This document shows positions 15,001 through 18,000 of a stretch of DNA of 27,848 bases, one piece after another. Source of the DNA: a virus (lineage: Duplodnaviria; Heunggongvirae; Uroviricota; Caudoviricetes); IMG/VR virus record IMGVR_UViG_2579778666_000022. The stretch is one strand, 5' to 3'. Made by a program: the position numbers. Each line of letters opens with the position of its first letter. The first letter of the stretch is position 1.

Positions 15001-18000
15001 ATTTAAAATACGCGCTCCTGTTTTTACCGGGCTCTGAATCATCGCATCACCGAGTCCACGGGCCATTTCCCCTGCCCCCCGGACGGACTGGGCGACACCT
15101 TTCCCCATAGTTGGCAATACATCGCCCAGGCTGAACGACGTGCTGTTGTCCTTCCAGCGATTGGGATCGGAGAAAAACGCATCATAGCTGTCAGTCTCGC
15201 CCGGCTGCTGAATGTTCAGGCTGTTGCGGTTCTGGTTGCCAAATTGCGCTTCAGGGCGCTGTTCATCGGAATAAGCCATACAGACTCCATAAAAAAACCC
15301 GGCACAATGACCGGGTATCAGGAAATAGTATTAACGGGAATGGTGAATTACTGCGCGTAATTCTGTTTCAGACCACGGATAAACTCAGATGCAGAGGCCG
15401 CACTATCATCTCTGGCCTGTTCCCCCCTGGCCTTTTGAATACGGAGAAAATTCGCATACCCGTTCTCCAGCAATTTCTGATTCTGAGGCTCCAGCATTTC
15501 TGGCTGACGGGAAGCAACTTCTCTGGCGAATGCCTGCTTATCCGGATCATCACCCGCCCAACTGGTAATCCCTTGTTGAATTTTTTGCTGCTGAATTTGC
15601 TGCTGATACTGCGGCAGTCCCATCGAAGCATAATATTGCGTCACTGCTCCCTGCGCATCACCGCCGTCCTGTGCAACCTTTATCGCTACCTGGCTGGCTC
15701 CTTTCTGAAGTTGATCCGCAGAAAGTCCCTGCTGCTTCGGCGTGAAATAGCCGAAATTTTTCGAAATTTCCGCGAATTTACTGCGATCCCTGACAAGCTC
15801 AACAGCCTTATCAACAGGCACCGCCAGCACGGTTTGATCATCAGGATGTGCACTGCCGTATTCCGTAACGGGTTTATGTGCTGTAGAGCCATCACTGTAT
15901 GTGAGATCAAGGCCGATAAGTATGTACCCTTCCTGCTGTGCCGGTACTATACTGCCAATCCTGGCCTCTTTTATCGTCTTTTTCCCGGTTGAATCGGGCA
16001 TGCCAATACGCTGTTGCAGTTCCGGGCCAAACACCCCGGAAAGGACATCAAGATTCTCCGGCGTATTAAGTGAAGCGATAGCCCTGTCCGGCTTGTCATC
16101 AAAGATTTTTTGCAGGTTGTTCACGGCCTGACCCGCTTTCGCTACATAGCCATCATTCGCCATCAGCCTCAGCGGATTACCCTCTGACAACTGGCCGTAA
16201 AGACGCATTGCTGCATCCCGATCGCCAGCATCCACAGCCTTTCCAAGCGCCGCCATCACAGGCTGATCGCGCGCCAGCATATCGTTATACTCAAGCCGTC
16301 GCTGGTTGTATTTCTGCATCCGGAGTCGCTGCTGCTCCATACCCAGCGACGCATTCCGGTAATTCTGGTTGGCGTTAAACTCCCTTTCCTGCAGTGCATA
16401 ATTACGGTCGTCGACTTTGGCTCTGTAATCAAAGTTCCGCTGATCAACGTCTTTATTATGTTCAAACTGCGACTGTGCAAATTCAAAATCGCGCTCGTTA
16501 TTTTTCTGTTGTTGAGCAAGCTGTGCTTCTCGCAAACCAAGTTCCTTACGACGGGTCATTGCCTGGTCAACCGTGCTGAATCCGGCAAGTAAACCCTGTG
16601 CAAATCCGCTCATTCACCACTCCTTAAAACAAAGAACCAGCAATACCACCTATGACAGCACCAATAGCCGCACCGGGGAGACCACCAACAGCAGCGCCCA
16701 TAGCTGCACCCGTACCAATTCCCGTGCCGATATTCTGTTTGTTCTGCGCTTTCTGTTGCGCCGCCATCTGTTTGTTCGCGGCCTCAATTTCTTCACGTCG
16801 TCTGTCGGCATCACTTATTCCCTGTAATGCCTCACGCCGCGACTGATTCGCAATATCCAGTAAACCGTATCCCATATTGCCCCCTTACGCTGACACCAGT
16901 TTTCCGCCAACACTCAGTTGTTGTCTTGCAGGTGCAGAAGCCCCCGTCAGTATGTTCATCTGGCGATCCTGCTCTGCTTCACGGATACCATTTTTCGCGC
17001 CAGCAATTGCCAGAGCATTACGCAAACCCAGTGTGTTACTGTTGGGATTATCCGGGCGGCTTACCCCGTATCTCGCCATCTGGTTATCCTGCGCCATCTG
17101 CGCTGTACGGAGACTGGAAGTGGCAAGGCCGCCCACCCGGGCAAGCTGTGCATTCATCAGGCTGTTGTTCTCACCAAGGTCAGCCAGCCTTGCCACGCGG
17201 GGCAAATATCTGGTTCGCCAGTCGTCGTATTGCTGGCGTGTCAGCGCGGCGGATGTCTGCCAGTCCCCCTGTGGGCGGGCTGCGCCTGAATAACCAGCCC
17301 TTGCGAGAGTTTCGTATTTGCCATACTCCATAATTACAGTCTCCAGTTCTGAGCCTGATGCTGAATAGCATTAGCGCCGGTGCCTGGCGTTTTAGCGCCG
17401 CCACCACCTCCGTTACCGCCAGCCTTATGCATCGCGTACGCACCTACAGCTCCCAGACCAGCGCCAACAAGAGAAGCTCGCCCCTGTTGTTTCGTAAACG
17501 CCGCCTGTGCATCCGATTTGGCTTTTGCCAGACTGCTGTCAGCCAGGGAGTTAAAACTCTGTAACGCATCTGCCTTCTGACCGGAACCGAGAGCCGCAAC
17601 ATCCTGTAGCCCGGCAATATATTTATCTGCCTGCGATACCTGCCCCCGTGTGGTCGTGTCAATCTGCCCGATCACCTGGTCGCTTTGATTTGCATCCATT
17701 ACTGCATTAAAACGACCACTGGATGGGTCAACGCCGGACTGAGCAAGATTACCCGCCAGCTCCCTTCGCGCTTCACCAAACTGTTTCTGATACCCAAGAT
17801 TTGTTGTGCCTGCGATATTTTCGTACTGCTGCTCACTGTTAAGGTCATCGACCTTTTTCATGAAGTTATCTTCTGCCGGACGGAGAATATTTTTGTAATC
17901 CTGCCACCCTTTCCAGGCCACCTCTTCCTGTGCTATTTGCGCTGCTGTTGGTTTTACTTTGGTATCACCACCACCTTTACTTCCGCCCATAATGGCTCCT

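Follow-up and report, generated by a model that had tools for sequence, protein, structure and literature searches.

What do four small genes do that lead directly into a giant open reading frame (ORF) in a short-tailed prophage of the Shiga toxin (Stx) type? This question is raised by a 27,848-nucleotide (nt) stretch of viral DNA (Duplodnaviria; Heunggongvirae; Uroviricota; Caudoviricetes; IMG/VR virus record IMGVR_UViG_2579778666_000022), the whole of which is called the window here. The four genes encode proteins of 218, 148, 83, and 421 amino acids (aa), and the giant ORF encodes 2,787 aa. The window represents the late region of such a short-tailed prophage of the Sepvirinae, adjoining host genes. 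Its DNA in this region is 93-97% identical to that of short-tailed Stx-converting Sepvirinae phages. These phages spread Shiga toxin genes, and most of their late genes are still labeled "hypothetical."

A first-pass annotation, made from the sequence alone, had proposed that the four products are ejection or internal virion proteins and that the giant protein is their partner or cargo. We found support for this proposal in mass spectrometry (MS) of orthologous virions, in synteny with phage P22, and in remote homology to P22 gp7. The cluster is probably the small-protein part of a P22-type ejection-protein module, which is expanded and coupled to a polyvalent giant protein. New here are the conserved order of the module, its P22 parallel, and the remote gp7 homology. 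Together with a 133-aa gene upstream, the cluster makes up a five-gene set, and its assignment with the giant gene to an ejection module would provide a function for genes that two experimental studies left unexplained.

Orthologous proteins in virions and in infection

Orthologues were identified in two phages. Protein identity to the products of phi24B genes vb_24B_43 to vb_24B_48 was 97% (133 aa), 94.5% (218 aa), 95.3% (148 aa), 92.8% (83 aa), 83.6% (421 aa), and 93.3% (giant). The same genes were matched by length and order to ORF75 to ORF80 (ECs1237-1242) of phage Sp5. Virions of phi24B were analyzed by cryo-electron microscopy (cryo-EM) as well as proteomics in a 2026 preprint (10.64898/2026.04.10.717836). 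In-frame deletions of the Sp5 genes were made by Mondal et al. 2016 (PMC5155283).

According to the proteome sheet for phi24B, the 421-aa orthologue (labeled "Transcription factor?") has 1,634 peptide-spectrum matches (PSMs) in total (batch count 179), the 218-aa orthologue 523 (82), the 148-aa orthologue 129 (83), and the 83-aa orthologue 13 (6). The portal has 2,226 (101) and the nozzle 702 (42). The PSM densities of the 421-, 218-, and 148-aa orthologues are at least as high as the portal's. Batch PSMs divided by length and scaled to 12 portal copies give about 37, 32, and 48 copies per virion, respectively; the error is at least 3-fold, since the same arithmetic gives 6.4 for the hexameric nozzle and 2.5 for the 12-copy adaptor. 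The 421-aa orthologue peaks in a gel band beside the 45-kDa capsid protein, and the 133-aa orthologue is not among the proteins detected (10.64898/2026.04.10.717836). Thus, the orthologues of the 421-, 218-, and 148-aa proteins reside in the virion, as the first-pass annotation led one to expect, and the 83-aa orthologue was found at the level of contaminants.

All four orthologues are missing from the phi24B cryo-EM atomic model. Because the 421-, 218-, and 148-aa orthologues are abundant by MS and absent from the model, they are most simply explained as unordered, internal parts of the virion. The giant orthologue, with 10,962 PSMs, was likewise unseen in the cryo-EM density. Only this protein (gp47) is proposed in the preprint text to be a capsid-packaged ejection protein; gp48 to gp51 are unmentioned (10.64898/2026.04.10.717836). 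"A homolog of a bacteriocin," which is the 83-aa protein, was dismissed there as a contaminant on annotation alone. Four tryptic peptides of this orthologue are all that is detectable, and its 37-residue tail is not detectable. We consider that the 83-aa protein is probably present in the virion.

Deletion of Sp5 ORF79 (421 aa) or ORF80 (giant) abolished infectivity and was complemented in trans, showing that both genes are essential; the ORF79 deletion gave neither plaques nor lysogens, and the particles of both mutants still packaged DNase-resistant DNA (PMC5155283). When ORF76 (218 aa) was deleted, plaques were formed, and lysogenization and infectivity were strongly impaired. ORF75, ORF77, and ORF78 (133, 148, and 83 aa) were dispensable (PMC5155283).

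Conserved gene order and its parallel in phage P22

The four small genes recur in the same order in 37 phage or prophage loci at 20-60% identity. In these divergent loci of Escherichia, Aeromonas, and Vibrio type, the order nozzle, needle, 133, 218, 148, 83, 421, giant is invariant. Since the genes recur in 37 loci and three of their orthologues are abundant in virion MS, the four ORFs are real genes. The 133-aa gene lies directly upstream of the 218-like gene in 35 of the 37 loci, and it is counted as part of the module because the gene order holds across divergent loci. Vibrio phage 1.205.O and Aeromonas phage phiARM81mr have one-to-one homologues of every module member, placed right behind the nozzle and needle genes without intervening morons; the respective sizes are 131/119, 201/212, 117/124, 77/85, 442/466, and 3,130/3,190 aa. 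Four module members of phiARM81mr are annotated as "putative virion structural protein."

The late operon of P22 (Lederbergvirus) contains hub gp10, needle gp26, gp14 (151 aa), gp7 (229 aa), gp20 (471 aa), and gp16. A synteny comparison, which had been suggested with the first-pass annotation, revealed the same positional logic in our locus: the module follows the hub or nozzle gene and the needle gene, a gp7-type gene is preceded by the needle gene and a small gene of the gene-14 type and is followed by a gp20-type gene, and the sizes are comparable (151/133, 229/218, and 471/421 aa). The ejection proteins (E-proteins) of P22 are disordered around the portal axis at about 12 (gp7), 12 (gp16), and 30 (gp20) copies, and the likeness extends to this property, virion proteins without ordered density at about 10-40 copies. 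Cysteine is absent from all four small proteins and the giant protein, as it is from gp7, gp20, and gp16. Conservation of gp7 goes with high variability of gp20 among P22-like phages. Similarly, when Stx phages are compared, no module gene diverges more than the 421-aa gene, with 75-96% identity versus at least 94% for the 218-aa gene.

The locus also differs from that of P22. The function of gp7 seems to be spread across the 218-aa protein plus a split pair of 148 and 83 aa. The N-terminal 20-residue propeptide of gp7, which the host protease OpdA cleaves off, is missing, and Met1-Gly2 of the 218-aa protein aligns with Gly22-Gly23 of gp7, where the mature protein starts. Similarity in sequence or fold was detectable neither between the 421-aa protein and gp20 nor between the 133-aa protein and gp14. 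Finally, at the gp16 position stands a polyvalent protein of 2,787 aa that has LPD and MuF_C domains.

The 83-, 148-, and 218-aa proteins and P22 gp7

The 83-aa protein consists of a charged N-terminal helix and a C-terminal double Gly-zipper ending in SLF. As described in the first-pass annotation, it ends in a long GxxxG membrane segment, a 34-residue hydrophobic stretch of [GAS]xxx[GAS] type. On the protein from the window, Pfam Gly-zipper_YMGG scored 26.7 bits (E value 4.5e-6), below the gathering score of 28.9; the family was matched by all 14 members of the 83-aa family. Kyte-Doolittle 19-mer maxima were 1.71 for this tail and 1.31 for P22 gp7; the 218- and 148-aa proteins reached 0.94 and 0.41, respectively. 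With a 15-mer window, the tail reached 1.94, versus 1.57 for the tail of gp7. Gly-zipper families (YMGG, Omp, OmpA, and Rick_17kDa_Anti) are matched by the 83-aa tail and share its GxxxGxxxG small-residue periodicity; they are mostly bacterial outer-membrane lipoproteins with signal peptides, whereas here the motif forms the C-terminus of a phage protein that has no signal peptide.

Aligned with hhalign, the 83-aa family matched the C-terminal third of P22 gp7 over 35-70 columns with 95% probability and an E value of 2e-8. The score was 52.5, and 30 column-shuffled controls reached at most 20.9. The C-termini are alike (...AVIGGIAGSLF in the 83-aa protein and ...GGGIGLLGSLF in gp7), and the SLF ending is kept in 13 of 14 family members. 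By these profile and sequence comparisons, the C-terminus of P22 gp7 has a remote homologue in the 83-aa family. In a hidden Markov model (HMM) comparison with known ejection-protein families, Pfam PF25688 (P22_gp7) was matched by 11/14 members of the 83-aa family (best E value 9.8e-6), and the 218-, 148-, and 421-aa families stayed below threshold. For the 83-aa protein of the window itself, PF25688 is not among the matches at E ≤ 1.

The 218-aa protein is rich in Ala (15%), Gly (14%), and Gln (10%), and it has the Gly-rich termini noted previously, with MGGSKGGGD at the N-terminus and the run GGNGGGGG at the C-terminus. Its Gly/Ala-zipper, which is shorter than that of the 83-aa protein and is followed by a variable tail, is kept across the family alignment and aligns to the 83-aa family. 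Comparison of the 218-aa family with P22 gp7 by hhalign gave a probability of 17-27% against the profile and 77% against the single sequence (E values 2e-5 to 7e-4; score 31.7, shuffled maximum 18.0). The N-terminus (MGGSKGGGD...W..Y...L.P) aligned to that of mature gp7 (GGKGGADK...F..I...L.P), and under a permissive setting the alignment was colinear across 194 columns. No HMM match was obtained between the family and Pfam PF25688 or phrog_598 (gp7), and all 14 members matched phrog_8003, "virion structural protein." An AlphaFold2 (AF2) model made without an alignment had a predicted local distance difference test score (pLDDT) of 44 and was unusable. The 218-aa protein thus appears to be a gp7-like protein with an N-domain, a C-terminal helix, and a short Gly-zipper, and its homology to gp7 is weakly supported.

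The remaining two relationships are internal to the cluster. The 148-aa family corresponds to residues 20-126 of the 218-aa protein (hhalign probability 81-86%, E value 5e-6, about 100 columns; score 43.0, shuffled controls at most 21.6), and the 83-aa family corresponds to residues 131-186 (probability 67%; score 34.3, shuffled maximum 21.1). This suggests that the 148- and 83-aa proteins are a split paralogue of the 218-aa protein. With such a split paralogue, the individual dispensability of the 148- and 83-aa genes and the leaky phenotype of the 218-aa deletion could be understood.

The 421-aa protein

The 421-aa protein is rich in Gln and Asn, as annotated (Q 11.6%, Q+N 16.9%). The term "low-complexity," which had been applied to the cluster, was overstated: only short stretches fall below 2.9 bits per 20-mer. 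In the AF2 model (pLDDT 72), residues 15-129 form a single helix (115 residues, about 17 nm if straight). This is followed by a helical region, a beta domain (residues 213-266), and a helical, variable C-terminal third. A small-residue motif, GLxxGLLAG, is conserved at the N-terminus. A model of P22 gp20 has the protein reach from one end of a 15-nm tube to the other, and the predicted helix fits this model.

The beta domain is the best-conserved core of the protein. It weakly resembles a Rib-type surface-protein domain (6s5w) at the motif level only (E value 0.29). PDB searches, run with individual proteins and with a profile of 42 sequences from the 421-aa family, returned apolipoprotein E (E value 0.0075, helical bias) and nothing meaningful, and no link to P22 gp20 or Sf6 gp12 (phrog_917/phrog_2534), to T7 gp15, or to any other protein was found in HMM, profile, or fold searches. 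The family is small, with 70 representative clusters in an exhaustive search of 1.84 billion proteins; a word-indexed search with the Vibrio orthologue yielded just 13 homologues. One representative of 1,386 aa carries the N-terminal 280 residues of the family, and no Pfam domain was found in it. The position, size, abundance, essentiality, and divergence of the 421-aa protein agree with those of the P22 gp20/Sf6 gp12 "tunnel" class, to which it would belong by analogy.

Alternative C-terminal thirds of the 421-aa gene occur, suggesting mosaic exchange like that of P22 gp20. In a large group of Stx2a prophages (LC6160xx), the gene is split after codon ~81-84 by an IS3-family insertion sequence (IS) element of about 1.26 kb (orfA HTH_Tnp_1 and orfB rve); an example is LC616033.1, ~950-2200, and the site equals window position ~16370. 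Judged by the phenotype of the Sp5 ORF79 deletion, the IS-interrupted Stx2a prophages should make no infectious particles. This predicted non-infectivity matters for judging which prophages transmit stx.

The giant protein and the 133-aa gene

The giant protein is a polyvalent protein with several LPD-type domains, encoded among virion genes. Pfam domains are LPD38 (E value 3.4e-48), LPD5 (7e-44), LPD1 (2.1e-23), and MuF_C (3.3e-18). The MuF_C domain is located at aa 1744-1835. MuF-C is called a peptidoglycan-degrading metallopeptidase in the phi24B preprint (10.64898/2026.04.10.717836) and is described as a PBECR RNase-type domain by Iyer et al. 2017 (PMC5512222). A Gly-zipper-like stretch near aa 395-428 of the giant protein resembles the 83-aa tail. 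Peptides of the phi24B giant protein come from numerous gel bands smaller than the full-length product, a pattern that suggests fragments or processing.

The 133-aa gene stands first in the module, at the place that gene 14 has in P22. The alignment of the 133-aa family looks like that of a small globular alpha/beta protein. Homology to P22 gp14 was not supported by hhalign (0.3%), and a YLPE(V/I)(K/R) motif that is seemingly common to the two proteins was rejected as unsupported (0.3-1.7%).

Comparison with other ejection and polyvalent-protein systems

Direct Pfam and PHROGs searches with the four small proteins returned just families of "unknown function" and Gly-zipper matches. Podovirus ejection proteins are matched mainly by size and synteny into a class of ~200 aa acting at the outer membrane, a tunnel class of 431-982 aa, and a larger inner-membrane class (PMC8954989). 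The 218-, 421-, and 2,787-aa proteins fit this scheme, in which the small protein has about 180-240 aa, with the 421-aa protein 10 aa under the range and two extra small genes in between. As for the trait described there, virion proteins that are unordered and essential after packaging, the 421-aa protein agrees fully and the 218-aa protein partly, and the 148- and 83-aa proteins differ in essentiality. The T7 proteins gp14, gp15, and gp16 are similarly encoded in an operon of a ~200-aa membrane-active, a mid-size tunnel, and a large protein, and they are internal virion proteins essential for infectivity. In contrast to T7, no ordered core stack was seen in phi24B, the module lacks the 4-5 transmembrane helices that are typically predicted for gp14-like proteins, a transglycosylase domain was not detected, and there is no sequence similarity (hhalign probability below 1%).

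Polyvalent proteins, which include P1 DarB and the N4 virion RNA polymerase, were described by Iyer, Burroughs, Anand, de Souza, and Aravind 2017 (PMC5512222). The giant protein resembles them in having LPD5, LPD1, LPD38, and MuF_C and in being virion packaged; injection with the DNA is predicted for such proteins (PMC5512222). That study differs from ours in that it concerns the giants only and describes no upstream set of gp7-like or Gly-zipper genes; the terms "Stx," "933W," and "glycine zipper" are absent from its text.

Proposed function and alternatives

The interior location, ejection, membrane targets, and channel formation, as well as redundancy between the 218-aa protein and the 148- plus 83-aa pair, are what we infer for this module. 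In the mechanism that we propose, the procapsid would take up tens of copies each of the 218-, 148-, and 421-aa proteins and, probably, of the 83-aa protein; they would sit near the portal axis without fixed symmetry, and the giant protein would be packed along with them. When the needle is released, the module proteins would leave through the tail ahead of the DNA. The Gly-zipper helices of the gp7-like set (218 aa; 148 plus 83 aa) would lengthen the tail hub so that it enters or crosses the outer membrane, and the 421-aa protein would supply the part that spans the periplasm, as P22 gp20 or Sf6 gp12 does. At the gp16 position, the giant protein would be both inner-membrane partner and delivered cargo. 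The module would thereby offer a concrete system for asking how a polyvalent protein of ~300 kDa is packed and delivered.

Several points weigh against this assignment. The MS data come from a preprint on an orthologous phage, and about 41% of the particles had already ejected (10.64898/2026.04.10.717836). The signal of the 83-aa orthologue (6 batch PSMs) equals that of the Lom and Bor contaminants. Comparison by hhalign with T7 gp13 to gp16 and P22 gp14, gp20, and gp16 revealed no relationship (421 aa/gp20 and 133 aa/gp14 were nil), and the 218-, 148-, and 421-aa families reached no P22 or T7 HMM threshold. Searched against PDB and BFVD, the AF2 model of the 421-aa protein had no specific structural match outside its own family. 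The membrane prediction of the first-pass annotation was upheld by Kyte-Doolittle analysis for the 83-aa tail, and no other segment reaches the classical transmembrane score. By Pfam, neither the giant nor the 421-aa protein has a peptidoglycan hydrolase domain. The 148- and 83-aa genes are individually dispensable in Sp5, whereas all three P22 E-proteins are required. Finally, P22 E-protein mutants make normal-looking particles, whereas the ORF79 and ORF80 deletion particles of Sp5 were not bound by an anti-fiber antibody (data not shown in that study), and these mutants were classed under "tail formation" (PMC5155283).

This last phenotype is what would be expected if the 421-aa protein, possibly with others, built or stabilized the short tail as a lumen plug or gatekeeper, in line with Mondal et al., since the mutant particles package DNA and yet bind no anti-fiber antibody. 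The phi24B authors also mention internal tail contents that possibly act as a core (10.64898/2026.04.10.717836). However, the phi24B tail density is explained by portal, two adaptor rings, nozzle, fibers, and needle, with the channel density assigned to DNA, and tens of copies without ordered density are unlike a stoichiometric tail part. The negative immunoelectron microscopy is weak evidence as well, since even wild-type Sp5 tails were visible only occasionally (PMC5155283). We regard a role in tail assembly as quite unlikely. A related question is whether the small proteins are head-internal assembly factors that mainly recruit and organize about 20 copies of the 300-kDa giant protein in the procapsid and form no channel. 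In phage P1, Hdf, DarA, and DdrA load DarB. The module is always immediately upstream of the giant gene, the giant protein has LPD polyvalent-protein domains, and the 421-aa and giant deletions share a phenotype, all of which suits such a loading scaffold. P22 gp7 is itself needed for efficient incorporation of gp20 and gp16, so that loading and ejection roles can coexist. A scaffold would nevertheless leave, whereas the small proteins remain in mature virions; by estimate, they are at least as numerous as the giant protein, and the gp7 homology of the 83- and 218-aa families, with their Gly-zipper tails, points to a role in a membrane or pore. Loading without a channel therefore seems an unlikely account of the module.

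Database labels suggest a different origin, in which the genes are non-virion accessory genes: a bacteriocin or membrane toxin (83 aa), a transcription factor (421 aa), or a moron or lysis cassette. The RefSeq label "bacteriocin" for the 83-aa orthologue has its counterpart in a Pfam match to Bacteriocin_IIc (PF10439; E value 1.1e-3). This match is sub-threshold (19.3 bits versus a gathering score of 27.1) and covers the Gly-zipper only, and the N-terminus is a charged helix instead of a signal peptide or double-glycine leader. In GenBank, vb_24B_47 is annotated as "similar to putative transcription initiation factor"; this is opposed by the abundance of the 421-aa protein in virions and its essentiality for infectivity, and no DNA-binding family was matched. 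Terminator-like hairpins flank the cluster, as they might flank an accessory cassette, but the order of virion genes is fixed in phages that lack morons at this place. More generally, homology to non-virion proteins was not found, and three of the four orthologues are virion abundant. We hold the accessory-gene explanation to be very improbable, and for the 421-, 218-, and 148-aa proteins it is effectively refuted. Assignment to an ejection module corrects both the "bacteriocin" and the "transcription factor" labels.

Within the ejection-module assignment, a more specific and still rather doubtful possibility is that a duplicated and split gp7-type module forms two alternative Gly-zipper pores or one heteromeric pore, which together with the 421-aa protein would pass ~20 copies of the 300-kDa protein. 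If so, the cluster would be a device for injection of protein effectors as much as a DNA conduit. The split copy could then provide partial redundancy or flexibility in host range, and this would account for the tolerance of losing the 148- or the 83-aa gene singly and for the leakiness of the 218-aa deletion.

Gene layout and surroundings of the locus

The four genes had been described as tightly packed, with good ribosome-binding sites (RBSs), and leading to the giant ORF. Coordinates, spacing, and RBSs were confirmed on the minus strand (Table 1). The gaps between the 218-, 148-, 83-, and 421-aa genes and the giant gene are 2, 9, 10, and 68 nt, respectively, and each start codon is preceded at 5-12 nt by a GGAG/GAGG-type RBS. 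Two elements had not been covered by the first-pass annotation, namely, the hairpins flanking the cluster and the 133-aa gene upstream, which is a conserved part of the module. Late antitermination presumably allows read-through of the hairpin between the 421-aa and giant genes. Rfam and tRNA scans detected nothing within the cluster.

Table 1. Positions of the genes and sequence elements of the locus in the window
Feature	Position	Strand	Basis or details	Sp5 counterpart	phi24B counterpart
218-aa gene	17990..17334	minus	ORF and RBS	ORF76/ECs1238	vb_24B_44 (gp51)
148-aa gene	17331..16885	minus	ORF and RBS	ORF77/ECs1239	vb_24B_45 (gp50)
83-aa gene	16875..16624	minus	ORF	ORF78/ECs1240	vb_24B_46 (gp49)
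421-aa gene	16613..15348	minus	ORF	ORF79/ECs1241	vb_24B_47 (gp48)
Giant polyvalent protein gene, 2,787 aa	15279..6916	minus		ORF80	vb_24B_48 (gp47)
133-aa gene	18483..18082	minus	Outside the cluster as first annotated	ORF75	vb_24B_43
Short Gly/Ala-zipper of the 218-aa protein, aa 172-186	17433..17477	minus	ASLVGAGLGAVGAYA, then poly-Gly run; Kyte-Doolittle 15-mer 1.43		
Gly-zipper tail of the 83-aa protein, aa 50-83	16627..16728	minus	Two small-residue helices around a GGLPG turn		
Best-conserved core of the 421-aa protein, aa 213-266	15816..15977	minus	Small beta domain, VTYxDGSxxxKPVTE...PDD; alignments and AF2		
Terminator-like hairpin and T-run	18032..18013	minus	In the 91-nt gap upstream of the 218-aa gene		
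Terminator-like hairpin and T-run	15316..15297	minus	Between 421-aa and giant genes		
Nozzle gene, 567 aa	23664..21961	minus	Context of the module		
Central needle gene, 422 aa	21964..20696	minus	Context of the module		

Moron-type genes (93 aa, 208 aa, and lom) at 18484-20681 on the minus strand separate the needle gene from the 133-aa gene, and there is a terminator-like hairpin for each of them (18890..18870). The 93- and 208-aa genes are the counterparts of phi24B gp55 and gp54, which were proposed as a needle-tip receptor binder. The stretch 23949-27654, upstream of the nozzle gene, contains a 156-aa ORF, a gene whose 373-aa product has a YadA-type membrane anchor and is possibly Eib-like, a DUF4376 fiber C-terminal fragment, and an IS1 transposase gene. 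The usual fiber and adaptor genes are not at their phi24B positions in the window, and for this reason the prophage may have undergone rearrangement or be defective.

Right next to the giant gene on its downstream side, a SocA/Panacea antitoxin-domain gene is located at 6241-6765 on the minus strand, followed by a PAPS-reductase/DUF3440 gene at 4297-5523. Near the end of the prophage, two copies of sRNA-Xcc1 (Rfam RF02221; 69 and 73 bits) were detected on the plus strand at 2808-2896 and 3345-3430; they flank or overlap the start of an AntA/P22AR-type antirepressor gene (3309-4100). The chromosome side of the window is marked by a host molybdopterin oxidoreductase gene at 1-2397.

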